A stretch of DNA of 41,564 nucleotides from Promethearchaeota archaeon (GTDB taxonomy: Archaea; Asgardarchaeota; Lokiarchaeia; Sigyniarchaeales; SOKP01). The notes under the pieces are model-generated. The model did no database searches. It worked only from the letters and a program-made list of their open reading frames with translations, and was not told the DNA's origin. Shown here in pieces: positions 165 through 15,571 of this stretch. The position numbers and the translations under genes were made by a program. Numbering within the stretch: position 1 is the stretch's first letter; every line of letters begins with the position of its first letter. Where the stretch lies: positions 1 through 41,564 of the forward strand of contig JBHLPW010000047.1 of assembly GCA_048939015.1 (NCBI GenBank), read 5' to 3'.

Positions 165-1280
165 TCAAAGCTTACTTTTTAGGATATAAAAAATAAGTTT
201 ATGACTCTTACCAACTCTTTTGGATTTTAATCCTTTTTCTTTTTCAAATTTTTTCAATCTGGTCATTGCAACTTTATAAGTGTTGTTGATTAGTGTTGCG
301 TATTCTGGTATTGTTATTTCATTATTATTGTTAATAAGGTATTTTCTTAAATGACCAAATGGAGTTAATTCCATTGATTTGTTTATTTGTATAAATTTCT
401 CTATATCTTCTTTTATGAGTTCAAGATCAAAGTGATTACTATATATATCAATATCATATTCTCTACATGGATGGTTTTTAATTTTACGATGTGGATTGTT
501 AGGATCAGTAGAAAGTTCATCAATTATCTCATTACTTAGTCTATTTGAAAAAAATGCTATTTGTCGTGTAATTAGATACTTCTTACTCAGATATTTCTGG
601 AGTATTTCTATATGTTTTAACGTATATTTATTAAAATCAGAATCTCGTAAATTAATTAATATATTTGCGATTTCCTTACATCTGTCCAAAAATTTTTGAT
701 TCATTTCAGGAGTATCTGCTAACTCATATCGCTCTGGATTTTGTTTTGTAATAGAATCATCCCCATACCAATAACCTTGGTCATTTTTTATTCTTTTAGG
801 TGTTCCAGTTTCTTCAAAATATGTATCATATTCTATTTCTATTTTTAAATAATATTCATCATCATAGTTTAGTGGAGAATCATCTTTCATGTGCAATTCC
901 TCATAAAAACTCATTGGTTTTATGTTTGTATATCCCTTTCTTCTCCTATTAAGCTTGGTTAATCTTTCTTCAATATTTTTCTTTTCTTTATCCTCTTTCA
1001 GCCAAATTTCAAATTGATTTTTTCTGTATTCATTTTTAACTTTTAATTTTTCTAATTCTTCTTGAAATTTTACTTTAAATTGAGTTTTTTCAAACCTCGA
1101 TAATTCATTTTGCCTATGCACATACTCATTAATTTCTTTATACTTATCTTCTTTACAAAATTCATCATATTTAATTTTAGTAAAATTCTCTAACATCTCC
1201 ATACATTCAAACATATTTAAAAAAAAGTTGCGAATGTCTTCATCTGTTAGAAAACTCAATTCACTTAATTCTTTGAACAT
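165..1280 (-). CDS. Hypothetical protein, coiled-coil N-half, C-terminal winged-helix-like DNA-binding domain
   Basis: 371-aa ORF with GGGAGTGA RBS. C-terminus ITIPEYATLINNTYKVAMTRLKKFEKEKGL..KLIFYI has a wHTH pattern. Confidence 0.7.
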   Translation of the reverse strand: MFKELSELSFLTDEDIRNFFLNMFECMEMLENFTKIKYDEFCKEDKYKEINEYVHRQNELSRFEKTQFKVKFQEELEKLKVKNEYRKNQFEIWLKEDKEKKNIEERLTKLNRRRKGYTNIKPMSFYEELHMKDDSPLNYDDEYYLKIEIEYDTYFEETGTPKRIKNDQGYWYGDDSITKQNPERYELADTPEMNQKFLDRCKEIANILINLRDSDFNKYTLKHIEILQKYLSKKYLITRQIAFFSNRLSNEIIDELSTDPNNPHRKIKNHPCREYDIDIYSNHFDLELIKEDIEKFIQINKSMELTPFGHLRKYLINNNNEITIPEYATLINNTYKVAMTRLKKFEKEKGLKSKRVGKSHKLIFYILKSKL

Positions 1281-1316
1281 TTTGAATCACTCCCGAAAAC
1301 TCTTTTAAACCTCTAA

Positions 1317-1829
1317 TTAAAATTTTGATCCTATAAACCATCGAACCAAATAGAAAGTTCCTATTTTTAACCCAATATAAACAGCGATTAATGTCAGTAA
1401 TGTATTCTCATTAAATATTGCATACTGTAAAATACCGACGAGACCAAGTGAATAGATGATTGAGGTTATTAATGCGGTTAATATAAAAACCAATCCCAAC
1501 TTGTTTATTCCTTTATTATATTCACTCCATTTCTTAGATGTTCTTTTTACTCTTTTATTACGATCTTTTACTTTAATAAATCCATTAATTGCAATTAATG
1601 CTATAATTCTTCCACCAATACTACTCAAAATCAAAATAGGAAATACCTTAAGTAATACTAACTCAGAAAACTCTCTACTAAAAATCTCTGAAAGCAATAC
1701 TTTATTACCAGAATAAATCTTGAGAGATGTTGTCGCAAAAAAGAATATGAAAATAGATATTAGATTGTGTATACAAAAGTACCAGAACTGATCACCTGAA
1801 GCACGTTCGGATTTTCTATTTTCCCTCAT
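1317..1829 (-). CDS. Hypothetical integral membrane protein (~4 TM)
   Basis: 170-aa ORF with four hydrophobic segments and a basic central loop, co-oriented in the operon. Confidence 0.75.
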   Translation of the reverse strand: MRENRKSERASGDQFWYFCIHNLISIFIFFFATTSLKIYSGNKVLLSEIFSREFSELVLLKVFPILILSSIGGRIIALIAINGFIKVKDRNKRVKRTSKKWSEYNKGINKLGLVFILTALITSIIYSLGLVGILQYAIFNENTLLTLIAVYIGLKIGTFYLVRWFIGSKF

Positions 1830-1870
1830 AGTTGATTCATCTTACTGATTTTTCCACTTCTTATATTATA

Positions 1871-4800
1871 TTAACGTAGGATAATAAAAATCACTAATGC
1901 AACAGCAACCATAACCAAAATAGCTACTCCGATTGCAAATTTTGTGTCTGATGACAATCTAATCCTAAATTTTCGATATGCTCTATATCTACCATTTGAA
2001 GCTATCTCAGAAGTTCTATTAGTGGCACTTCGAATCTTTATATATAGCACAACACCGACTATGGCGATAATTATTGCTAAAATCCAAAATGCTATAACAG
2101 TAGCAGTATCATTTATTATAGGTTTAGGTATATCTGGAACTTCTGCTTCAAAAAAACCAAAATCTACTGTTTTTGTCTCAGGTAAATCTTCCCAATCCGA
2201 TAAATATTCACCTGTTTCTACAGATTTTAATCTATATTCTACATCCTCTTTTGGTAAATACTGTTCAATTGTATTCTGAGCTGAAACGGTTAAATAATCT
2301 ATTTTATCCTTATATTTTAATAAGACCTGAACTGATTCATTTCTATAATTGTTAATAAATTCCCATGCATCAATCTGACTCGTTAATAATGATGTATTTA
2401 ATCCAACATTAGTCCAATTAAGCAATTCACTAAACATCGTCATCTTATATAATTCAGTAAGGAAATCATTTTGTTGTAAGACAATTGAAAGATTTCCTGA
2501 AATTGTATTATTTATTAAGCTTAAAGAAGTGCCTAAATCTAATACAGCATTATAGATACTATTATTGATTAAATATACTGATGAATATACCTGTGAAACT
2601 AAATCACATATTGTATTATTTACTAATACCAAATTGTTCAAAATAGCAATTCTGGAATCATTTATATTAGTATTTGTAAGGGTGATTGAGTTATTTAACA
2701 AAATATAGTTATTTGTAATATTACTTCCAATCTCATCTATTGTTGTATCTAAATCGAATAATGCAGTATCAATTGAAATGTTCATTAATAATAGATTTGT
2801 TTCAAGCTGAGAAATCATTGTAGAAATCGTTCCATTTATCAAATATACATCATTACTTACTCCTATAACCAAATTCGAAATACTTTGATTTATTGAAATA
2901 AGATTATTCTCGATATAGACAAAAGAGGTATTCATAATATTATTGATATTAATAAATGAGGTGTTTGTAAACATATACAATGTAGAGATGTTATTTGCGA
3001 TGTTTTCTATATCTACATCTAAATTTAATAATAAATCTCCTAATGTAGAATTTACATTCGATAAATCTATATTAATATTTATTATGCTATTGTTAATTGC
3101 TGAATTCTGGTTTGTTAAATCTATTTGAACATTAGTAATCTGATTTCCTATTGTAGCATTTACATTGGCTATATTGTAAATTACCTGAGATAATACATTA
3201 TCTGAGTTAATAAGGAGAATATCATCACCACTTAAAGTATATGAATAATAGCTATAACTTCCCCCTTCATTATCAGTCAAATTGATTTTGTAGTATCCTG
3301 CAAACAGATTGAACTTGATAATTTCATTAGGAGCAATCCATTCACTCCAACTATAAGGAGATTCATAGTAGTTTGGATCTCTGGTTATATTAATATGATT
3401 AAATAGCTCTTGTTGGTTCATTATTTTTAAACTATATTCAGTTAGAATAATAGGAACATAATTATCTTCAGCTTGGACTATAAAAGAGTAATTTTTAATG
3501 CTAATATCAAATAAATCTTTAATCTCTACTGATATATTTTCACCTACATCTCTATAAAATACATTACTATAAATTAAATTGCCATCTACATAGGTTTTAT
3601 AGTTATTAAAGAAAAGATATTCTCCCTTTTGATTAGTATAAGTTAAAAAACACAATTTGGAACTATTTATCACTAAGATTTGATGACTTGAAAAAACAAA
3701 TTCGATTGACTCCTCTTTTCCATCTTTAGTATAATTAAATTTGTACGTTCCAGTGGTTAATGAAAATTTGATGATTTCTTCTGAAAAGATATTACCTGAT
3801 TTAATAATTTCAGTGTCTATGTTATTTAACTCATAATATACTGGATTATGATACTCATTTTTTATTTTTAACTTATAGACATTTAGTGTGATATCTATGA
3901 AAGTTTCCTCATATGTTTCATAGGTTTTTACTAATGCATTAAAAGAGTCATAAATCTTTAATTGTATTGAAGTGTCTATATCAACATATAAGATATTACT
4001 TGACAATCGTTTATTTGAATAAGTAAAATTCTCTAATGTGTAATTCACATAGGTAATGTAATCATTAAAATCTAAATGTTCGTTATTAGCATCAAAATAA
4101 TTCACATAGACAATATTATCATCAATACGTTTATATATTAGTGTTTGTAATGTTGCTGAGGTTTCTAATTGTTTAATTTCTTTTAAAATATCATTTTCAT
4201 AGATTTCTATGGTATAATTATTAGGATAGGAAAGAGTTAATTCTCTTCTTTCATATGGAGCTAAATAATAAGAATCTATTTCTGTATATGGTCTTGAAAT
4301 TTTTATAGAATCAATTACCAAATTCTTAGTATCATCAAACGTTCCAGTAAACTCTAATTGGTCAATAGTCATATTAGAATTAATTGTAAACATTTGAGTT
4401 CTTGTTTCAAAATTTCCATTCCCTTGACTTGAAAGGATATACGATTTCTGTTGTACACCATTATTTCGTAAATTAAAATCTATTCGGTTTGGTGATGATG
4501 TATTAAAAATTATTTCTACTTTATCATTAATATGTAAATCTAAGTTAAGATCGTCTGGATTTCTTAATGTTAATGTTTCAGTAGTATCTGTTTGACTATA
4601 TAATACTCCAGACCCTTGATATATTTTAGAGAGATAATAATAAAGTCGTGGTCTAAAATTTGGATTATAATATTCAGTATACAAGAAATCTACTTCAACA
4701 GGATCAACAGTATCTGAAATTAAATTATAATAAAAAATATTAGGATCTCCAGCATCCCATTCATACCAAGTAGCTCCAGATGATATATAAGTTTGAGAGA

Positions 4801-5356
4801 GATATGTTATTTCCGATGGTTGATTATTCCATGTTATCGTATCTTGATCAAAATCACTTGTAGTATATAGTTTAACATAACCAGTATCTGGAACAGTGGT
4901 AATAGCATAAAGTTTCAATATGGTATTAGAAGTATAATTATCAAGAAGATATGGAAGCTCTTCTTTAATAAAAGTCTCCCATTCATTATGCCAAACATGA
5001 TTACCACCAGCACCATATTCAGTATCTGGATCAGATGCTCTTACAGGTGCATCATCAGTAGGATTAACATAGAAGTCCATTACAAGATTAGAAACATCTA
5101 TTAATTTCCAACGATTTGAAATATTATTAAATGGCTGAAAATAAAGAGTGTTATATCCAGCAGATTCATCTATAAAATCCCATTTAGTAGTAATTCCTGA
5201 TTCTGATATTAGTTCTACATTAGGATCTGCTGAAAGATGTAATCCTGTTAAATCACGAGTAAAATAAGAATATTTTGGAGTAGAATTAATAAAAAATAAA
5301 GAAGGTAAACAAAAAAACACCAAAATCAATAGTATTTGAAATTTTTTATCTTTCAT
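1871..5356 (-). CDS. Large surface (glyco)protein / adhesin-spike: signal peptide, DNRLRE/CBM96-like domain, beta domains, 18-residue-repeat helical stalk, two C-terminal TM segments
   Basis: N-terminal hydrophobic signal. DDAPVRASDPDTEYG..LKLY..ITWNNQP..RPRL resembles DNRLRE domains. Asn/Ile-rich repeat stalk, many N-x-S/T sequons, two C-terminal hydrophobic helices. Confidence 0.75.
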   Translation of the reverse strand: MKDKKFQILLILVFFCLPSLFFINSTPKYSYFTRDLTGLHLSADPNVELISESGITTKWDFIDESAGYNTLYFQPFNNISNRWKLIDVSNLVMDFYVNPTDDAPVRASDPDTEYGAGGNHVWHNEWETFIKEELPYLLDNYTSNTILKLYAITTVPDTGYVKLYTTSDFDQDTITWNNQPSEITYLSQTYISSGATWYEWDAGDPNIFYYNLISDTVDPVEVDFLYTEYYNPNFRPRLYYYLSKIYQGSGVLYSQTDTTETLTLRNPDDLNLDLHINDKVEIIFNTSSPNRIDFNLRNNGVQQKSYILSSQGNGNFETRTQMFTINSNMTIDQLEFTGTFDDTKNLVIDSIKISRPYTEIDSYYLAPYERRELTLSYPNNYTIEIYENDILKEIKQLETSATLQTLIYKRIDDNIVYVNYFDANNEHLDFNDYITYVNYTLENFTYSNKRLSSNILYVDIDTSIQLKIYDSFNALVKTYETYEETFIDITLNVYKLKIKNEYHNPVYYELNNIDTEIIKSGNIFSEEIIKFSLTTGTYKFNYTKDGKEESIEFVFSSHQILVINSSKLCFLTYTNQKGEYLFFNNYKTYVDGNLIYSNVFYRDVGENISVEIKDLFDISIKNYSFIVQAEDNYVPIILTEYSLKIMNQQELFNHINITRDPNYYESPYSWSEWIAPNEIIKFNLFAGYYKINLTDNEGGSYSYYSYTLSGDDILLINSDNVLSQVIYNIANVNATIGNQITNVQIDLTNQNSAINNSIININIDLSNVNSTLGDLLLNLDVDIENIANNISTLYMFTNTSFININNIMNTSFVYIENNLISINQSISNLVIGVSNDVYLINGTISTMISQLETNLLLMNISIDTALFDLDTTIDEIGSNITNNYILLNNSITLTNTNINDSRIAILNNLVLVNNTICDLVSQVYSSVYLINNSIYNAVLDLGTSLSLINNTISGNLSIVLQQNDFLTELYKMTMFSELLNWTNVGLNTSLLTSQIDAWEFINNYRNESVQVLLKYKDKIDYLTVSAQNTIEQYLPKEDVEYRLKSVETGEYLSDWEDLPETKTVDFGFFEAEVPDIPKPIINDTATVIAFWILAIIIAIVGVVLYIKIRSATNRTSEIASNGRYRAYRKFRIRLSSDTKFAIGVAILVMVAVALVIFIILR
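2465..3166 (-). repeat. 13 tandem 18-aa protein repeats (helical stalk)
   Basis: Gap-free register NVNATIGNQITNVQIDLT / NQNSAINNSIININIDLS / NVNSTLGDLLLNLDVDIE ... LINNSIYNAVLDLGTSLS / LINNTISGNLSIVLQQND. Confidence 0.8.
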
Positions 5357-5359
5357 TTT

Positions 5360-5698
5360 TTAAACCACACTAATTATTGTATAATAATTTTCCATTAATA
5401 CCCAAATTCCAACAATATTTATGAAGATTATTCCAATCAAGAACAGTTCTTGAATACAATTGTAATTTATCTTGAAATAGATTAAAGAATTAAACATGAA
5501 AAGAGAGATAATAAGCCCAATAAATAAAATTATTAATAATATTGGATTCTGAATTATTTGAGTAGCGAATGGATTTAATTCTTGAAAATTATTTTTGCTT
5601 ATCCAATAAAAAGTAGTTATAACATCTGTTATTTTTAAGAAAATATAGCTTATTACAAAGAAATTATTAATTAAAAACACGAGTTTTTCATTTTTCAT
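5360..5698 (-). CDS. DUF5658-like small membrane protein
   Basis: 112 aa, 3 TM, motif DVITT....ELNP typical of DUF5658. GGAGTGA RBS. Confidence 0.7.
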   Translation of the reverse strand: MKNEKLVFLINNFFVISYIFLKITDVITTFYWISKNNFQELNPFATQIIQNPILLIILFIGLIISLFMFNSLIYFKINYNCIQELFLIGIIFINIVGIWVLMENYYTIISVV

Positions 5699-5703
5699 CT
5701 ACT

Positions 5704-5862
5704 TCACTCCTTTACATTTAGTTCTTTCCTTAAAATCTCATCTACAACATTCTCTATTGTATTACCTTCATCTACAGCTCTCTTCTTTAGTATTCCATGT
5801 ACTTCTTCATCCAGATGAACTGATTTCTTATTATACGGAGATGATCTTTCTTTAGATGACAT
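5704..5862 (-). CDS. Ribbon-helix-helix (CopG/Arc-like) regulator, not in the ORF track
   Basis: Manual translation MSSKERSSPYNKKSVHLDEEVHGILKKRAVDEGNTIENVVDEILRKELNVKE (52 aa) shows the RHH strand-helix-G-helix pattern. Its stop codon overlaps the RBS of the next gene. Confidence 0.85.
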   Translation of the reverse strand: MSSKERSSPYNKKSVHLDEEVHGILKKRAVDEGNTIENVVDEILRKELNVKE

Positions 5863-5901
5863 TTTTTGAAAATTTTATAATTTTATAATTTTATAAAATA
5901 A

Positions 5902-6013
5902 ATTTCTATGAGTACATATAAATATATGTCTTTAAAATAAGCTCTACTAAACCAATTTCTCACTTCTATGAAACTTTATAAATATAAATAGTCTAATGAT
6001 AAGTATATTAATA
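5902..6013. promoter_or_regulatory. Duplicated promoter cassette, copy 1
   Basis: Aligns with 7662-7782. Contains a minus-strand TTTATATG box upstream of the RHH gene and a plus-strand GAAACTTTATAA box. Confidence 0.65.
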
Positions 6014-6097
6014 AATTCTTAATATTAGTAATTTAGTTCTACAATCATACAATTTCAATAATTAAATTTTTCAAAAAATAGATATAATATAAAAAAA

Positions 6098-7585
6098 CTA
6101 TTTTCTTCTTCTTAATATTGTTTCAATTTCCTTTCTTCGTTGTCTTCCTTTTATAATTGGAACACCAACATAAATGAATAAAACAATTCCACCTACAACT
6201 ATCAATATTACAATTATCCATGTTATTATATCAAAATCACCAAATAAACCTCCTGCCTCAGTTGTATGGGTTTCGCCACCTCCAAATCCATCAACAGTAG
6301 TTAGCCATAATAATAGATCGTAATATTCAGCTGGAAAACTAAGATCATAATCCTCAATATCATCAGAACCAACATCTATTTTGTATGAACAGAAAACATC
6401 AAAAACCACCTTGATCTTCGTTTGAATATACCGATTTGTACAATGTAATGCTACTGGTTTTGTATAAGACTGATCGTTTTGAGTATTACTATGCTCTTTT
6501 ATACCTATATGTAAAAACGCATCCCAATAATCTATTGAACGATAAAAAATGTATCTGAAAGATAATGTCCCATAGTATTCCATGACAAGTGGACTTAATG
6601 AACCAATATGATAAATGAACTTACAGTCTTTCATTGATGTTTGCTTCACTTCTGGATTCCAAATAGGATCTCCATTTTTAGTAGTTGGATTCATAGAACT
6701 TCCTGCAGTTTGTGGTAATATACCACCATCCCAACTGTTTTGTGGAGTAGTAGGAATATTTAACTGTATATTTGGATTATAATATGCATCAAAAGTTCTG
6801 GTTTTGCTTCTAATATTATTCATTATTGATGAAGTGGGATTTTGCATACTACTATATTCTTCTTCATAGTCTCGTGGTGTTATTCCAACAACAGTAGGAA
6901 CAGAATTGTCTAATTTACCATATACATTATCTACAACTGCAACTGAAGAAACAGCGATATAATCAAAATTCTTAGTAAGAGAATCTCCAGAAACAGTATT
7001 AAAATTAGGAAGTAAATTCTGTGCAATATCAAAAGACATAACTAAATCACCACCAAAATCACTGTGGAGAGAGTTCCACTGTTTTATATTCCCGAAATCA
7101 TAATGATTCCATGTGACATATTCTTCCCAGCCATGCATTACATCTCCCATAAGTCCAAGATGTTGATATTTTGCTACCAGATACTCCTCTTTTACTTGTT
7201 CTAACTTATTATTTTCAGCACAATCTACAACATCCAATGTAGTATACATATTAACTTTGCTTGTCATAGCAACCTTATATCTTATATAAGCATTATCTCC
7301 ATCTGTATAAATGTCTAATAATTCTATATCATCAGGATAAATATTCCAAGAAGCTTGAGACTCGAACTGGAGTTTTTGATTAATTGCCTGTCCTGATAAA
7401 CTTACTGAACTTCCATCGAATGTTTCAAATTTAAAATTCTTTATTAAATCATTCGAAACAATATATGTATCTCCTTCAGCAAATGGACTGAATCCTGTAA
7501 TCGATATACCAGCTATAAGTATTAAAGAAACGACAAAAATTGAAATGAATAGAACTTTTTTGGATTTAGATTTTTTCGATTTCAC
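6098..7585 (-). CDS. Membrane-anchored beta-rich protein (signal peptide + C-terminal TM); candidate spike/fusogen
   Basis: 495 aa, GTG start with GAGGAG RBS. N-terminal signal, ~410-aa ectodomain with 4 Cys, C-terminal TM plus basic tail. Function is inference only. Confidence 0.7.
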   Translation of the reverse strand: MKSKKSKSKKVLFISIFVVSLILIAGISITGFSPFAEGDTYIVSNDLIKNFKFETFDGSSVSLSGQAINQKLQFESQASWNIYPDDIELLDIYTDGDNAYIRYKVAMTSKVNMYTTLDVVDCAENNKLEQVKEEYLVAKYQHLGLMGDVMHGWEEYVTWNHYDFGNIKQWNSLHSDFGGDLVMSFDIAQNLLPNFNTVSGDSLTKNFDYIAVSSVAVVDNVYGKLDNSVPTVVGITPRDYEEEYSSMQNPTSSIMNNIRSKTRTFDAYYNPNIQLNIPTTPQNSWDGGILPQTAGSSMNPTTKNGDPIWNPEVKQTSMKDCKFIYHIGSLSPLVMEYYGTLSFRYIFYRSIDYWDAFLHIGIKEHSNTQNDQSYTKPVALHCTNRYIQTKIKVVFDVFCSYKIDVGSDDIEDYDLSFPAEYYDLLLWLTTVDGFGGGETHTTEAGGLFGDFDIITWIIVILIVVGGIVLFIYVGVPIIKGRQRRKEIETILRRRK

Positions 7586-7661
7586 TATGAGTTCTCCTCT
7601 CTTTTAAGTATTATTTTTACTATTTACTTTTCCTTTAAATTATTATAATATTATAAAAGAG

Positions 7662-7782
7662 ATTTCTATAAAAACATTTAAATATTTGTACTTATGATAT
7701 ATAAAATAGAACCCATTAATCCACTTTCTTATTTTTGTGAAACTTTATAAGCATAATTAGTCTAAGAATAATTAAATTAATA
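7662..7782. promoter_or_regulatory. Duplicated promoter cassette, copy 2
   Basis: 7715-7782 aligns ungapped to 5946-6013 (54/68 identical by hand count). Minus-strand TTTAAATG box upstream of the 495-aa gene. Confidence 0.65.
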
Positions 7783-7971
7783 TAATTTTAAAAATAATTA
7801 TTCAGCTTTCTATTTACCAAATTTTAGTACTGAATTTCATTGAAAATAGGTTCTTTTTTTAAAAAGGTGAATATTATATCATTTTTTTAAAAAAACGAGC
7901 TAAAACAGGCTAAAAACAGGTATAAATGGATGTAATAAAAATAGAGCTAATACGTTTTTATAATAAAAGAA

Positions 7972-8356
7972 TATAAAATAGGAGTAGAAAGCTGGAAACT
8001 ATTATAAAATATCTTTTTGAAAAAAGATATAAAATAAAAAAATAAAATATGATTTTAATAATTATATTTTATATGTTTTTTTAAAGCGGAATTTTCTAAG
8101 TCAAAATATTTAAAGAATAAAAATTTTTTTCTGAAAAATATATCTCATCATATATAATACACAAATTTATGTTGCGAGCTTATTGACTACATGGTTATTT
8201 AATTTCTTTTTTGATTTATGGTATTATTTTTCAAAAAAGTTAAAAAATGATTAAACTTTATAAAATAGGAGTAGAAAGCTTATAAGGAGTTTTTTGAAAA
8301 AAGATATAAAATATAATGGGATATATTCTTTATTATATTTTATATGTTTTTTTAAA
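7972..8356. repeat. Three-block direct repeat in a non-coding region (candidate origin/iterons)
   Basis: TATAAAATAGGAGTAGAAAGCT (7972-7993, 8259-8280), TTTTTGAAAAAAGATATAAAATA (8014-8036, 8291-8313), ATTATATTTTATATGTTTTTTTAAA (8061-8085, 8332-8356). Confidence 0.85.
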
Positions 8357-8403
8357 TAACCCGTAGGATTAAGATGGAGTAAAAAAGAATAAATCTATTT
8401 GCT

Positions 8404-10563
8404 TTATAGATAATATATAGATTTAGGCTTTCCTCCTTTCTTAGATGGAATGATTGTTTTAATCTTTAAATTTTTATTTCTAACATAGTTATCTAATTTC
8501 TTTTTCGCGATGTAATAAGATATATTATATAACTCCATACAGTCATCTATGGTAATCTGATGATGTTCGGTTAAAAAATCTTTAAGTCTTTTATCGAGTT
8601 CTTTTGTTATACCTCGTTTTTTATCACCGATTTCCTTAAAATAAGATTGTAATTCTCTATGATTCCTAAATGTAATAACCTTTACATTTTCAACATTATT
8701 ATAACCAAGATCCAATCCAGATAATTCTAAACAGAATTTATCATTAATACCACGCATCATACGTCCCATTGCTTGACTCATTTCTGTTTGAGCTTTTTCT
8801 TCCCGATATTCATCTGGATTTATACTAAAAAAAGTAGATTCACGATTGATATGACCACTTGGAATATCAGGAGTTCCAAAAAGTATTGTAGAATTAAAGT
8901 TTTCATATTCATTAGTACCAGCTAATGGATATCTTACACATGTTAGGTTATCATTAGTTTTTTTTATGTATTTCCATAAACGAGTATTAGGTTGTTCATC
9001 ACTCGGTTTAGTTCGTACTTTCATATCTCTTGATACAAATAAATGTTGTCCAATTTCTGGAAAAGCATATATATATGCTTCCATATCTTCTTTTAATCTT
9101 TTCAGTGTTGAATATCGTTGTATTGATGCTTTTGGATAATATGCAAATTTCCTGTTAAAGCCACCCTTTCGTTTGTGTGGATATTCCAGTTTATATATTG
9201 TAAGATTATTCGAAACCATATTTTTCTTGTAAATCTGTAATCGATCACCAAATATCTTTTGTAATTTTAATATACTGGCAGTAGCATCATTTATAATAAG
9301 TTTAATGATTTTTTCAGTATCTAACATCTCAACTATACTGTGAAAATCATAATATAACATTCCTATACGATATTGAGGTGTATTATCATCAGGATTTTTG
9401 TTTTTAAATTTAACTCTTAAGATGACTTTTTCCAGCCAGTTATCTATATTTGTAGGATCTGTTTTTTTCATATAAAAATAGTTTCTAATAAATGAAAGGA
9501 TGTGATAAAAATAAAATCGTTTAAATGGGAAACTATTTGGTCTTATATTTTTATTTTCTAATTGTCTATTTCTCTTTTCATTTTTTTCCAGTATCTTCCA
9601 TGCTTGTGTGTTTAGGATATTAATACTCTCACCATCAACATCAAAACAATCTTCCATGCAATCTAATATATCTTTAATCTTCTTGTAATCAAGCTCATTA
9701 ATAATTCCTTCTTTTAACAGGTTTAAAAATTCTAAAAGCATTTCAAAATCAGCTAAATAGAATATAGTTTTTGAGGTCTTTTTCAACTCCAAATCCATTA
9801 TAACTTTTTCTAAAAATGTAATGTTCTTGTTAAGAGTAGAAAGATAAATTTTATTATTTGTTTTAATAGCATTCTCGAAATCTTCATCTATGACTAAAAC
9901 CATCCTGTCTAATCTTGTTAGCCAAATCGGAATGAATTTGTTTATTTGATGAGATACAGTTAAACATAAACTTACATAGGATGGTGGAAATAATTCACGT
10001 ATTTTACAAAAGTAAGGACACATATTATCTCGATGTTCACATTTACGACATAAATAATCAATGGATAATCCTATTTTTTCCGCACACTCTACTAATGGAT
10101 CAATTCTACGCAAACAAGTACGTCCTTTACCTTCAAAAATAAGATAATTTAATGGAACTTGTGCAAACTTCTCTATTTGACGTTCAAATTCTTTTACTCC
10201 TTGTTCATATTGTTGTCCAAGCAATACTATTGCTGTTCGTTCTTTTTCCACCATGAAATCAATTGTATAACGTATGATATTTAATATCCATTGTATAATA
10301 TTCGCTGTTTTCCCTGCTCCAGTAGATAATTTCACGAGATTTATTATTTTATCATTTAAGAAAATGTCTTTATAGATGAAATTCACTTCCATCCATTGTT
10401 TTTTCAGTCTTTCAGGTACATCAAGAGATTTTTGTTCATTTAAAATTTTTTTATGGATTTTATTTATTAAATCATCATTGTAGTGATATGCAACACCATC
10501 ATACAATTCTTCATGTTTCTTTTTATTATTTTTTAAATTTTCAAAAAAAGTTGGTTCAGTCAT
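8404..10563 (-). CDS. SF2 helicase, DinG/XPD-like with Cys cluster and C-terminal wHTH; probable replication protein of the element
   Basis: Walker A STGAGKT, Cys cluster GRTC..C..CRKC..CPYFC, Walker B LVIDED, motif III DAT, motif VI QAMGRMMR. GGGAG RBS. Confidence 0.75.
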   Translation of the reverse strand: MTEPTFFENLKNNKKKHEELYDGVAYHYNDDLINKIHKKILNEQKSLDVPERLKKQWMEVNFIYKDIFLNDKIINLVKLSTGAGKTANIIQWILNIIRYTIDFMVEKERTAIVLLGQQYEQGVKEFERQIEKFAQVPLNYLIFEGKGRTCLRRIDPLVECAEKIGLSIDYLCRKCEHRDNMCPYFCKIRELFPPSYVSLCLTVSHQINKFIPIWLTRLDRMVLVIDEDFENAIKTNNKIYLSTLNKNITFLEKVIMDLELKKTSKTIFYLADFEMLLEFLNLLKEGIINELDYKKIKDILDCMEDCFDVDGESINILNTQAWKILEKNEKRNRQLENKNIRPNSFPFKRFYFYHILSFIRNYFYMKKTDPTNIDNWLEKVILRVKFKNKNPDDNTPQYRIGMLYYDFHSIVEMLDTEKIIKLIINDATASILKLQKIFGDRLQIYKKNMVSNNLTIYKLEYPHKRKGGFNRKFAYYPKASIQRYSTLKRLKEDMEAYIYAFPEIGQHLFVSRDMKVRTKPSDEQPNTRLWKYIKKTNDNLTCVRYPLAGTNEYENFNSTILFGTPDIPSGHINRESTFFSINPDEYREEKAQTEMSQAMGRMMRGINDKFCLELSGLDLGYNNVENVKVITFRNHRELQSYFKEIGDKKRGITKELDKRLKDFLTEHHQITIDDCMELYNISYYIAKKKLDNYVRNKNLKIKTIIPSKKGGKPKSIYYL

Positions 10564-10588
10564 TTTTAACTCCCTTGTTATTAATAAT

Positions 10589-10615
10589 ACCGATGTCGGT
10601 TATTTATAAACTTTT
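10589..10615 (-). promoter_or_regulatory. Helicase promoter (BRE/TATA) with operator-like palindrome
   Basis: Minus strand reads CAAAAGTTTATAAATA, immediately followed by the palindrome ACCGA-N2-TCGGT (10589-10600), then the RBS and ATG. Confidence 0.55.
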
Positions 10616-10716
10616 GTCCTATTCACTGAAATATAAACCTCGTTTAATAAAATAAATTAATTTATAAAATCGGCTAATAAAGTTAGTGTGAGACTAATTA
10701 TACATATAAACTTTTT

Positions 10717-10810
10717 TTATTATCTACTCAGTTTCGAGTAGATACTAACTGATTGTGATCTTAGAATATTATTCTCGTATATGATCTACCCAGTTTTGAG
10801 TAGATATTAA
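10717..10810. other. Two dif/lox-like palindromic sites (arms + 6-bp spacer)
   Basis: TTATTATCTACTC-AGTTTC-GAGTAGATACTAA (10717-10748) and ATATGATCTACCC-AGTTTT-GAGTAGATATTAA (10779-10810). Confidence 0.6.
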
Positions 10811-10876
10811 AAATTTACTAAAAAACCAAAACATTTAAATTCAACCTATAACTATTATGCTTGGTGGTTTTTTCAC

Positions 10877-10941
10877 TTCATTGTTTTCTCTTAGATGTGT
10901 ATTTTCTCCCTTGTTAGTACATGTCTGAGAAAAACAATGAA
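10877..10941 (+). ncRNA. Putative hairpin small RNA with an anti-RBS loop
   Basis: 24-bp stem with one bulge and three G-U pairs that form only on the plus strand. The 16-nt loop contains CUCCCUUGUUA, complementary to the helicase mRNA RBS region. Confidence 0.5.
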
Positions 10942-11352
10942 CTTCTTTAATAAGAATTACTAAAATAAAGTATTTTTAAAATAAATTACTTAATTTACTT
11001 CATTTTTGAATATCCATTTTAATTTACACTCATAAGAGCAAAAATAATGAGCTATACTAATTTTCTAAACTTATAAACCTCGTTTATATAAACCTCGTTT
11101 ATAATCCTAAAAATCGGTTTAAAATCTTTAATCCTGAATTATATATATATTTTCAAAAATAAAAAAATCGTTCCTAAAAAAGCCTGAAAATAGAGGTTTA
11201 TGAAAAATTTAAAAAAATTATTTTATTTTTAGGTAATTTTCAAATATTAAAACCATTAAAAATATGGTGCATTTCTTTATAATAGATTTTTTTAATAGAT
11301 AAAATATAAAAAATAAACCTATATTTTTAATAAATTAAATTGGTTTAAAACC

Positions 11353-12621
11353 TTAGATTTCATCTTTTTTGATACCATGGTATTCTAATCGTGCTTCTGC
11401 TTCGGTTATTTCTCCTTTCTTTATTCTTTTTTCTAAATCATCCCGATAATAAAGATCGTCAAATAAAGATTTCATTTCTTCTCTCATATTATTCATTTCC
11501 TCTTTGTACAAGTCTTTCATAGCTTCTAACTCATCTTTAAGTTCTTTATTTTCTTCTTTTAGTCTTTGGATATCTTCTTTTTCTTCTAACCTATCAATCA
11601 CTATTCTTTCCTTATTAACAACATGACCACATTTATAACAAAAAGCATTTTGTTGGTTGTTTTCAGTTTTACAGACTTCACAAATAATCTTTTTAAAGGT
11701 TTTAGCTTTTGTTTTTTTTGGTTTTTGTCCATTCTGCTCTAACAAAATGTTCCTTATATCAGTATCATCTATATGAAAATAAATGGATGCCATTTGAGAT
11801 TCTTTTGTCCATCCTGCAAATTTTCTTAATTGTGGTTCATTTAGTTTGGTTAATGCAAGCTCAGTCAAGCGACTGTGTCTAAATAAATGAGGATGCAAAT
11901 CCTTATTCCAATCAGGATATCTTTTTTTTAATTTTTCAGTTAGTCTGCTGTAATATGTTGTGATCCATTGGGGATGATAATCAAATATCTTATCTTCTGG
12001 TTTAAAATCATTCTGATTAAAATATTCTCTTAGATATGGCACAGATTCAATTAAAGTAATGTTTCTCGATACTGTCTTTGATTTTCCAATATAGATATCA
12101 AGAAATTCTTCATCTTTTTCAGGAAATTTCACATCTCTAAATAATATATTAACTAACTCATCTCTTCGCAGTGCTCCCTCATAATTCACCATAATCATGG
12201 CTCTTTTTTTCATACCAACATTTTTAAGAATTAAATCTAATTCTTTTCTGGAAATCAAATCAGTTTTATTTAATTCCTTGCTTTTCATACTATAAGTTGG
12301 AAATATTTCAATTAAGTCCTTTCTCTCAAAATAATCAAAATACTTCTTTAATTCAGATAAATAGGTGTTTTTAGTTCTATTGGATAATTTTTTAAATTTC
12401 TCGTTATTTATGAGATCTTTAATATCATCTTTAGTTAAGTTTTTTGGAACAAATTTACCTGTTAAATCATAGAATCTACTGAGAGCATTTAAATTGGTTT
12501 GTTGTGAATGATATGATAACTGTTCTAATTTAAATGTAAAATAATCATCAAAAACAGGGTTTAAAAGAATTAATTCATTCTTTTTATCATTTACATATGA
12601 ACCTTTATTAGCTTGAGTCAT
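11353..12621 (-). CDS. Tyrosine recombinase/integrase with C-terminal Zn ribbon and coiled coil
   Basis: Catalytic residues R (GALRRDE), K (KSKT), HxxR (HLFRH), GW, Y (IYFH). CEVC..CYKC ribbon. TTTAAATG box ~24 nt upstream, suggesting a leaderless mRNA. Confidence 0.92.
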   Translation of the reverse strand: MTQANKGSYVNDKKNELILLNPVFDDYFTFKLEQLSYHSQQTNLNALSRFYDLTGKFVPKNLTKDDIKDLINNEKFKKLSNRTKNTYLSELKKYFDYFERKDLIEIFPTYSMKSKELNKTDLISRKELDLILKNVGMKKRAMIMVNYEGALRRDELVNILFRDVKFPEKDEEFLDIYIGKSKTVSRNITLIESVPYLREYFNQNDFKPEDKIFDYHPQWITTYYSRLTEKLKKRYPDWNKDLHPHLFRHSRLTELALTKLNEPQLRKFAGWTKESQMASIYFHIDDTDIRNILLEQNGQKPKKTKAKTFKKIICEVCKTENNQQNAFCYKCGHVVNKERIVIDRLEEKEDIQRLKEENKELKDELEAMKDLYKEEMNNMREEMKSLFDDLYYRDDLEKRIKKGEITEAEARLEYHGIKKDEI

Positions 12622-12900: not shown

Positions 12901-13785
12901 CTAAGTTAGTCTATGAGCTTCTTCACAGATATCAGCATTTTCAAACCATTTATTGAGTTTACCTAATTCTTGCTGAGGAAATTCATATGAATATTCCCGA
13001 TTAGGATAAATTCCATTTATAACTTCATCCTTATAATCATTTAAAGCATGACGAATGGATTCACCTAAATTACTAAAATATTTAAGAAATTTTGGTTTAA
13101 AATCAGTGAATATTCCCAACATATCATGTATAACTAAAATTTGACCGTCACAATAAGGTCCAGCACCAATTCCTATAGTAGGGATTTCAACACTATTTGT
13201 GATTAATTTAGCTAATTGCCAAGGTATACTTTCTAAAACAATCGAAAAAACTCCTGCTTCTTCTAGATTTTTTGCATCAAGTATTAATTTCTTTGCAGCT
13301 TCTACAGTTTTGCCTTGGACTAAAAAACCTCCAAACTCATAAATTGCTTGTGGAGTTAAGCCAATATGACCCATAACTTGAATATCTGCATTAATCATTG
13401 CTTTAATTGTGGAGCAAATTTCAGTACCTCCTTCAACTTTAACAGCTTCTGCACCCCCTTCTTGGATAAATCTCCCTGCATTTTTAACGGCTTCCACTTT
13501 ATCAACTTTATATGAAAGAAAGGGCATATCCCCTATGATTAATGCATTTGACACACCTCGACTCACTGCTTTTGTATGATGAATCATTTCATCCATAGTA
13601 ACTGAAAGTGTGTTAGTATAACCAAGCATAACCATCGAAAGTGAATCTCCTACTAAGATCAAATCAATCCCACTTTCGTCAACTATTTTTGCAAAGGAAT
13701 AATCATAGGAGGTGATGGTAACTATTTTTTCGCCTTTTTTTTTCTTTTCGATGATATTATTTATAGTGACTTTTTGTAATGACAT
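12901..13785 (-). CDS. panB: 3-methyl-2-oxobutanoate hydroxymethyltransferase
   Basis: [35 protein letters not shown] and DGQILV motifs. Confidence 0.97.
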
Positions 13786-15067: not shown

Positions 15068-15571
15068 TTAAATTCTTTCTATGAGAGATAAAAATGCTTG
15101 CTTAACATTTTCTCCAGTTTTAGAGGATATTTTTAAATATCCAATAATATTATTGTATCTTTTTATTATATCTATTATACTATCATCAAAAGCTTTACAC
15201 TCATAAACATCAATAGTGTCAGATTTGTTTCCTAGTATGAAAATAGGTATATTACCATTTTCATTTAATTTTTTTATCCATTCTTCAACACCTGAAAGAG
15301 TATTAAAACGAGATAAGTCAAATAATACAAATGCAGCAATAGAACCATCAACAAAGTCATCTAAAATTTTTTTGAATTGAATTTGCCCCGCAAAATCCCA
15401 CATTACAAAATTATATTCTTGACCATTTATTAAAAGATTTTTTGAGAAAAAGTCGATACCTTTAGTTAACTCATTATTAACGTTGAAGTTATCATGAATT
15501 AATCGATTGAGAAATGAAGTTTTCCCTACACCACCATCTCCAGAAACAATGACTTTTACTGTTTTTCTCAT
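15068..15571 (-). CDS. Small Rab/Ras-like GTPase
   Basis: G1 GDGGVGKT, G3 WDFAGQ, G4 NKSD, G5 SSK. Confidence 0.92.
   Translation of the reverse strand: MRKTVKVIVSGDGGVGKTSFLNRLIHDNFNVNNELTKGIDFFSKNLLINGQEYNFVMWDFAGQIQFKKILDDFVDGSIAAFVLFDLSRFNTLSGVEEWIKKLNENGNIPIFILGNKSDTIDVYECKAFDDSIIDIIKRYNNIIGYLKISSKTGENVKQAFLSLIERI

Follow-up and report, generated by a model that had tools for sequence, protein, structure and literature searches.

A conserved all-beta, membrane-anchored protein as a candidate surface component of the transfer module of Asgard mobile elements

Background

Three described systems come closest to the protein examined here. The VP4/VP5 spikes of the pleolipoviruses HRPV-1, HRPV-2 and HRPV-6 are type I proteins of about 500 amino acids (aa) from capsid-less, membrane-bounded archaeal elements; they have an N-terminal leader and a Gly-rich linker ahead of a C-terminal transmembrane (TM) helix, their gene lies near that of a small multi-TM membrane protein, VP5 is V-shaped with a four-helix bundle and one helix of more than 40 residues, and on most pleolipovirus spikes no glycan was detected (PMC6381117). 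Class II fusogens and fusexins (HAP2, EFF-1 and Fsx1) combine a beta-rich ectodomain, bearing an internal hydrophobic hairpin tip, with a stem and a C-terminal TM helix, and Fsx1 is carried on integrated archaeal elements (PMC9259645). The morphogenetic module of wyrdviruses consists of a small 2-TM capsid protein, an adhesin, five conserved genes and an ATPase (bioRxiv 10.1101/2021.07.29.453957), and the spindle virus His1 (AF191796) encodes a 505-aa protein, ORF27, with a signal sequence and a C-terminal anchor, together with the 281-aa ORF26. We analysed a 495-aa protein encoded on a 41,564-nucleotide (nt) stretch of DNA from a Promethearchaeota archaeon (contig JBHLPW010000047.1, positions 1 to 41,564, assembly GCA_048939015.1; the whole stretch is called the window hereafter), which an original prediction had proposed to be a novel membrane fusogen or spike in an Asgard mobile element. 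This protein and its homologues are here named F0. The papers on Asgard viruses that were consulted mention neither fusion proteins nor the F0 family.

Conservation and genomic context of F0

We consider it likely, though with considerable reserve, that F0 is a surface or envelope component of the transfer module of its element. The fuller form of this proposal is tentative: F0 would be a conserved membrane-anchored surface (envelope) component in the transfer module of an undescribed group of Asgard elements, either integrative or episomal, in which no capsid gene can be recognised. An exhaustive search recovered 65 clusters of F0 homologues at E <= 0.001, of which 48 are at E <= 1e-30, and an indexed search recovered 36 clusters with 33-80% identity. 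All F0 clusters lie in Asgard-type contigs, beside integrases and a co-oriented membrane-protein module. Sources are named for few of them, namely Odinarchaeota, Promethearchaeota, metagenomes from marine sediment and a single "Patescibacteria" metagenome-assembled genome (MAG). The locus with the last label (JANBVM010000006.1, registered as both L008 and L020) has the full module with an F0 that is 58% identical to the target; because the family is otherwise restricted to Asgard, the label is probably a binning error. The gene occurs in three of 400 genomes of the phylum, and the 52 further genomes from the genus of the source all lack it; two genomes among the 400 have two F0 matches each.

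In the window, the target belongs to a run of co-oriented genes (165-12621) that begins with a tyrosine integrase and continues with a 719-aa protein, the target, a ribbon-helix-helix (RHH) protein, a DUF5658 protein, an 1161-aa protein with a CBM96 domain, a multi-TM protein and a 371-aa protein, after which the contig ends. Beyond the integrase the host part includes panB, a Ras-family GTPase and other genes, with a G+C content above that of the element. A second, diverged copy of the module is present on another contig of the same genome (C76, L001:8212-19138). It comprises a NikA-like RHH protein, a 310-aa tyrosine integrase, an F0 that is 78-80% identical to that of the window and a DUF5658 protein of 141 aa, followed by a giant protein that is truncated by the end of the contig at more than 2247 aa. 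The integrase beside host panB, the lower G+C content, the second copy and the patchy spread all agree with the assignment to an Asgard mobile element. F2, the Rce1-like protease and F4, which occur in related elements, are absent from both copies of the source genome.

Eleven loci were used to compare the module. Its recurrent order is integrase, F2, F0, optionally F8 or F37 and F5, a small 2-TM protein, the giant protein F1, an Rce1-like protease, several multi-TM proteins and the soluble protein F10. Both copies of the source genome, and also L004, L007 and L010, have an integrase upstream of F0. F0 is the sole family present in 11 of the 11 loci, and between pairs of loci it is 36-80% identical over its full length; in the same pairs F1, F2, F3, F4 and F6 are less conserved than F0 or only partly alignable, and F5, where present, is conserved as well as F0 or better. 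The giant F1 proteins have CBM96/LamG-type matches and can be aligned only in parts, which together with their size range is as expected for a host-recognition protein. Replication genes also vary between elements, with the uncharacterised 719-aa protein in the window and a D5-like primase-helicase in L009. The conserved core of this group of elements is a membrane-protein module and not a capsid, and F0 is a usable marker of a little-known Asgard element group, found integrated and as a probable 35-kb circle.

That circle is represented by assemblies L009, L013 and L024. Two of these sequences, from independent assemblies and of 35,378 nt (ENA k141_3020952) and 35,384 nt (JGI Ga0307380_10001400), are 99.99% identical over a common 15 kb and start 6,306 nt apart; from the near-equal lengths and this offset, a circular replicon of about 35.4 kb is probable. 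The element encodes F2, F0, F5, the giant adhesin, the Rce1-like protease, a D5-like primase-helicase, a DNA methyltransferase and a NucS-like nuclease, and no capsid gene was detected in it. Among the element proteins that were scanned, likewise, none matched a capsid, terminase or packaging ATPase family.

In eight of the 11 loci, F2 (about 340 aa, with an N-terminal anchor) is encoded directly upstream of F0, with a gap of 10-25 nt. It belongs to no known family and is a possible partner of F0; a profile comparison between F0 and F2 gave a match in the N-terminal leader only (probability 13%).

The gene order raises the possibility that these elements are spindle-shaped viruses of the wyrdvirus or His1 type, in which F0 would be a minor virion protein of a terminal or tail structure, the small 2-TM proteins the capsid and the giant protein a terminal adhesin. 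The order resembles the published wyrdvirus morphogenetic module (bioRxiv 10.1101/2021.07.29.453957) in that small 2-TM proteins and a giant adhesin are followed by a conserved membrane-protein block; the giant type I protein (1161-2685 aa) stands after a small membrane protein, much as a large terminal adhesin adjoins the capsid gene in wyrdviruses, relatives have exchanged replication modules, and ORF27 of His1 is similar to F0 in size and topology. However, comparison of F0 with ORF27 and ORF26 by hhalign was empty (probability 0.2% and 0.1%). The small 2-TM proteins (77-87 aa) showed no similarity to the His1 capsid protein VP21 (hhalign probability 0.6%) and no PHROG match, although such short hydrophobic proteins are hard to match; the DUF5658 protein of the window was not similar to VP21 either. 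F10 (383 aa) lacks a P-loop, and neither it nor the proteins around it gave a pI-like AAA+ ATPase family; Walker A is absent from the window element, and in L024 it occurs only in a 330-aa helix-turn-helix protein and the adjoining 217-aa open reading frame (ORF), neither with an ATPase family match. In addition, tblastn of the target and its DUF5658 neighbour against 50,697 phage and archaeal-virus records gave no match, and IMG/VR has one F0 locus only. We therefore have not filed the elements as wyrdviruses, given the negative His1 homology tests and the failure to detect an ATPase, and regard a role of F0 as a virion protein of a spindle-shaped virus as rather unlikely.

Membrane topology and sequon avoidance

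F0 has two hydrophobic segments, at residues 11-29 and 453-478, and the cytoplasmic flanks of both are strongly basic (Table 1). With the tail at residues 479-495, this is the type I layout with one TM helix and a basic tail that had been read from the target sequence. Residues 1-38 are probably a cleavable signal peptide, as judged from their sequence, so that the mature protein would be of type I; an uncleaved N-terminal anchor is a less likely alternative. The small residues at -3 and -1, ahead of residue 39, are also found in F0 relatives, and in the alignment the homologues have the same start position as the target and a similar Lys-rich leader. The aromatic and Gly-rich membrane-proximal segment noted at the outset is the best-conserved motif of the family, with P418, Y421, W427 and G433 invariant. 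Between the stem helix (418-434) and the TM helix lies a Gly-rich linker (GFGGG ... GGLFGDF). In these respects F0 resembles the pleolipovirus VP4/VP5 spikes, as it does in size, in leader, in its small multi-TM neighbours and in the apparent absence of a capsid. The differences are considerable: the VP5 ectodomain is an alpha/beta V-shape with a four-helix bundle while that of F0 is all-beta, no sequence or fold match links the two, no VP8-like ATPase/NTPase family was detected in the F0 module, and the hosts are haloarchaea in one case and Asgard archaea in the other.

The target ectodomain contains no N-x-S/T sequon, against 4.4 expected. Among all 70 relatives 97 were observed and 264 expected (ratio 0.37), 29 relatives having none, and in the subfamily of the target the counts were 11 and 105 (ratio 0.10); as the sequences are related, the counted events are not independent. 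Control motifs (the reversed S/T-x-N and three others) occur at 0.67-1.41 of expectation. The giant neighbour in the window is enriched, with 35 sequons against 21 expected, and the giant proteins of two other loci have 48 and 64 against 30 and 38. Since a cytoplasmic protein would have sequons at chance levels, counts below chance argue that the F0 ectodomain is exposed to the N-glycosylation machinery on the outside of the cell, with selection working against its glycosylation. This specific avoidance is a new observation of the present analysis. Even if F0 is neither an entry nor a fusion device, its strong and specific sequon avoidance beside a sequon-rich adhesin is a distinct and testable mark of the way in which the glycosylation machinery of Asgard archaea is used by these elements.

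Sequons are also lacking from F5 (about 287 aa) and F8 (273-311 aa), two more module proteins that are secreted or of type I, in L002, L003, L008 and L009, where 1.4-2.9 are expected in each protein; the F5 copy of L007 has one sequon. These numbers are too small for significance on their own. Sequon counts in F2 are normal or raised.

Structure of the ectodomain

The full-length AlphaFold2 (AF2) model of the target has a mean predicted local distance difference test (pLDDT) score of 76. A model of the ectodomain (residues 36-410, from an alignment of 70 sequences) reaches a pLDDT of 87.9 and a predicted template modelling (pTM) score of 0.80. It is all-beta, with strands of 15-24 residues, in keeping with the long beta strands predicted earlier. 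The main strands are 81-95, 98-115, 129-143, 149-163, 177-187, 202-224, 320-330, 333-354, 360-383 and 385-403, and the only helices are two of 4 and 8 residues; a helix bundle is absent.

Searches with this confident model in Foldseek and VIA-align gave beta-sandwich matches at background level only. The closest are C-terminal beta-sandwich accessory domains of glycoside hydrolases (e.g. 9m0b_B, 5axg_A and 6tvk), which share a two-sheet core with F0 and superpose over 90-118 residues at a root-mean-square deviation of 2.9-5.3 A. These matches cover less than one third of the 375-residue F0 ectodomain, whose strands are two to three times longer, and F0 has no enzyme context. Because single sandwich domains align over model residues 4-363, the ectodomain would seem to be one large sandwich to which N- and C-terminal strands both contribute, and not three domains. 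The F0 profile (36 members) had no match among PDB chain sequences at E <= 10, Pfam and PHROGs have no family for the target, the ESM Atlas features gave nothing for F0, and a Pfam scan of 70 members at E <= 1 returned scattered noise with nothing significant. Thus the earlier statement that no sequence homology is recognised holds in Pfam, PHROGs, the PDB profile search and the virus records, and in the model the all-beta outer part is unlike any solved structure. No longer, fused forms of F0 were found in the search, which is weak evidence.

These results bear on the suggested kinship with known fusogens, according to which F0 would be a diverged homologue of class II fusogens or fusexins (HAP2, EFF-1, Fsx1) or of the pleolipovirus VP4/VP5 spike. 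What is shared is size, topology and beta-richness, to which Hanta_Gc_C matches in three of 70 members can be added, all non-significant (Pfam, E 0.2-1). Like class II proteins and fusexins, F0 has a stem and a C-terminal TM helix after a beta-rich ectodomain in which an internal hairpin has a hydrophobic tip; carriage on integrated archaeal elements is shared with Fsx1. But no class II fusogen, fusexin or VP5 chain is among the matches listed by Foldseek or VIA-align. Moreover, no three-domain signature was detected, the strands of both ectodomain halves aligning to single sandwich domains, which suggests one domain, and the VP5-type helix bundle is absent. The target has four cysteines, as had been noted (122, 321, 382 and 399). 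Of these, C321 alone is common, being present in 28 of 36 members, and five members are Cys-free, so the family has no conserved disulfide. The proposed structural relationship to class II fusogens, fusexins or VP5 was thus not borne out, and we consider such homology very improbable.

Both hairpins of the original prediction, which had been described as having hydrophobic tips, lie in the confident part of the model. Hairpin 1 is formed by strands 129-143 and 149-163 with the turn at 144-148, and hairpin 2 by strands 333-354 and 360-383 with the turn at 355-359. In a family-averaged Wimley-White scan, the non-TM segments of highest interfacial hydrophobicity were the stem (421-429), followed by 145-164 and 353-361. 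The two tips differ in conservation. Tip 1 has the consensus H-x-G-L-F-G-D, with H142 and G147 in at least 90% of members and W153 invariant, whereas tip 2 varies among members and contains indels, so that the second hairpin stands as a hydrophobic turn but not as a conserved one. The G-L-F-G-D motif occurs twice in F0, at tip 1 (residues 144-148, 7141-7155) and, less conserved, abutting the TM helix (residues 445-451, 6230-6250).

Strand connectivity places the invariant P332 and N384 turns at one end of the C-terminal half, with tip 2 and the exit to the stem at the opposite end. In the N-terminal half, tip 1 and a conserved PLPNF loop (188-201) are at one end, and the indel-rich loop 116-128 and the disordered loop at the other. 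Provided that the conserved turns cluster, we infer that the conserved end would be membrane-distal and the variable end membrane-proximal. Tip 2 is a poor candidate for a fusion loop because it is variable and at the membrane-proximal end, and tip 1 is the remaining candidate in this model.

A further explanation, which keeps the function put forward in the original prediction but makes no claim of homology, is that F0 represents a new structural class of true membrane fusogens. After adhesin binding, the G-L-F-G-D hairpin would insert into the recipient membrane and would then be brought by refolding to the side of the stem and TM helix, so that the recipient would merge with an enveloped particle or with a donor cell. 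The type I layout, the conserved hydrophobic hairpin tip and the stem, which is similar to a membrane-proximal external region, are what such a protein would have. The strong and specific sequon avoidance is expected if surfaces must stay free to refold or pack, F0 is the most widely shared protein of the module and stands beside a hypervariable adhesin, the elements have no detectable capsid gene, and the Gly-rich linker ahead of the TM helix recalls that of the HRPV VP5 spike (PMC6381117). On the other hand, no fold or profile match was found to class I, II or III fusogens, fusexins or VP5, conserved disulfides are absent, and the second tip is variable and membrane-proximal. Gly-flanked hydrophobic turns and aromatic juxtamembrane segments are also common in non-fusogenic surface proteins. 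The fusion loop of the flavivirus E protein also contains G-L-F-G, a resemblance to tip 1 of four residues only. On balance we regard a fusogen as unlikely, but as better placed than the spindle-virus explanation.

A founder of a new fusogen class could act in capsid-less, vesicle-like Asgard viruses, in plasmid-vesicles or in cell-cell fusion during element transfer, and we judge that proposal to be equally unlikely. The G-L-F-G-D tip would then be the fusion loop, assisted near the membrane by the stem, and receptor binding would fall to a separate partner, the giant glycosylated adhesin. A fusogen function is compatible with the conserved tip, with the aromatic stem and the avoidance of sequons, and with the presence of a hypervariable adhesin as a partner in elements that have no detectable capsid gene. 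Should F0 prove to mediate entry or fusion, its architecture would be new among fusogens and would come from a lineage debated for the origin of eukaryotic membrane dynamics and cell fusion.

A proposed role in element transfer

Taking F0 as a surface or envelope component, we propose the following sequence of events. F0 would be exported by its N-terminal leader as a type I protein, with an elongated, unglycosylated all-beta ectodomain carried on the aromatic and Gly-rich stem, a single TM helix and the conserved basic tail directed toward the cytoplasm or, if the protein is incorporated into particles or vesicles, toward the particle interior. Variable host recognition would be the task of the neighbouring giant adhesin, which is sequon-rich and hypervariable. 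F0 would then perform an invariant step after attachment, namely close contact with, or penetration of, the recipient surface or membrane, using the conserved end of the ectodomain (the G-L-F-G-D tip, the PLPNF loop and the P332 and N384 turns), while the tail would provide the link to the interior.

Several points weigh against this proposal. A particle, vesicle or transfer event has been observed for none of these elements, and Pfam, PHROGs, PDB, Foldseek and VIA-align gave no sequence or structure link from F0 to known envelope, spike or fusion proteins. The hydrophobic stretch of tip 1 comprises just two residues with a glycine on each side, and strand connectivity is the basis on which the tip is taken as exposed and the conserved end is oriented. 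The window element, which has no F2, Rce1-like protease or F4, may be reduced or defective. Finally, the entry function could reside in other type I proteins of the module, such as F5 or the giant protein with its helical stalk.

F0 might instead act on the cell that carries the element, through superinfection exclusion, surface masking or as a membrane platform that anchors or assembles the giant adhesin. A ribosome-binding site and two oligo-T runs, the latter a likely archaeal terminator, flank the gene, which therefore resembles a separate transcription unit; with its own promoter-like region and terminator it is set apart from the RHH-DUF5658-adhesin unit, which would suit such a role. 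F0 is always accompanied by large surface proteins, its conserved cytoplasmic tail could bind host factors, and the window element has retained it though several module genes are missing. However, exclusion and accessory genes are usually variable and sporadic, while F0 is the most widely shared gene of the module, and L002 and L006 have F0 but no giant adhesin, contrary to what is expected of a dedicated adhesin chaperone. We consider action on the carrier cell improbable, to about the same degree as a spindle-virus protein, and retain the surface or envelope component as the preferred explanation.

Features of the window and further observations

The coordinates of F0, its signals and its neighbours are given in Table 1.

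Table 1. Features of the F0 gene and protein and of neighbouring genes; positions refer to the window unless a locus is named
Feature	Residues	Position	Strand	Basis
Target coding sequence (F0), 495 aa, GTG start, TAG stop	1-495	6098..7585	-	ORF and homologues
Leader: Lys-rich n-region, hydrophobic segment 11-29, conserved Pro34, A-x-G at -3/-1	1-38	7472..7585	-	
Ectodomain, all-beta, no N-x-S/T sequons	39-405	6371..7471	-	AF2 and sequon counts
Hairpin tip 1, conserved; GLMGD in target	139-154	7124..7171	-	Alignment, AF2 model, hydrophobicity scan
Acidic, low-confidence variable loop; only start conserved (P-x-IVG-x-TP-x-EY)	225-273	6767..6913	-	Alignment and AF2
Hairpin tip 2, variable, indels	348-364	6494..6544	-	Alignment and AF2
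Membrane-proximal stem, L-x-x-P-x-E-Y-Y-D-x-L-x-W-x-T-x-V-D-G-F-G-G-G; helix 418-434 in model	415-437	6275..6343	-	
TM helix, GGLFGDF ahead of helix	453-478	6152..6229	-	
Conserved basic cytoplasmic tail, K/R-G-R-Q-R-R-x-x-I-E-T/S	479-495	6101..6151	-	Alignment
Ribosome-binding site GAGGAG, 8 nt 5' of GTG		7594..7599	-	Sequence reading
Two oligo-T runs directly 3' of TAG stop, likely archaeal terminator		6073..6097	-	Sequence reading; function inferred
Giant type I surface protein (F1), 1161 aa, CBM96 domain, sequon-enriched, hypervariable between elements		1871..5356	-	
DUF5658 protein, 112 aa, 3-TM		5360..5698	-	
719-aa protein, uncharacterised		8404-10563	-	
Tyrosine integrase, host-proximal end of element		11353..12621	-	
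Host panB		12901-13785		
F2 examples in other loci		L002:8956-9975; L004:8949-9986; L007:4946-6001		

Between the 719-aa gene and the target, the window has an AT-rich stretch of 818 nt (7586-8403) with no ORF of 50 aa or more, in a place that is taken by F2 in other elements. It contains direct repeats with a spacing of about 270-290 nt (e.g. 8014-8039/8291-8316 and 7960-7993/8247-8280), and could be an origin or regulatory region. Upstream of the target, and also of the RHH-DUF5658-adhesin genes, there are similar 34-nt AT-rich boxes (7649-7682, 5889-5922 and 8000-8033) with 76-79% identity. These are possible common promoter elements, for which the resemblance is weak evidence in DNA of 26% G+C.

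Regarding the other proteins of the window element, an identification of the 719-aa protein as an XPD-like helicase was unconfirmed, Pfam giving only noise and the PDB sequence search being empty, and the 371-aa protein has no similarity to F10. The slot of the DUF5658 protein is occupied in related elements by small 2-TM proteins of about 80 aa. A simple finder detected no CRISPR arrays that might target the element in the whole MAG.

A distant F0 of 562 aa is encoded on a 93-kb contig (IMG/VR UViG 3300017963_000016; L006, the same as L017) between a 335-aa protein and an Rce1-like protease. This contig, on which the giant adhesin is absent, encodes a 3'-phosphoadenosine-5'-phosphosulfate (PAPS) reductase and is reminiscent of Asgard mobile elements that have been published as 'enigmatic'. 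The small GTPase of the Ras/Roc family in the host part of the window (15068-15571, minus strand; Pfam Ras, E 1.3e-30) fits an Asgard host.

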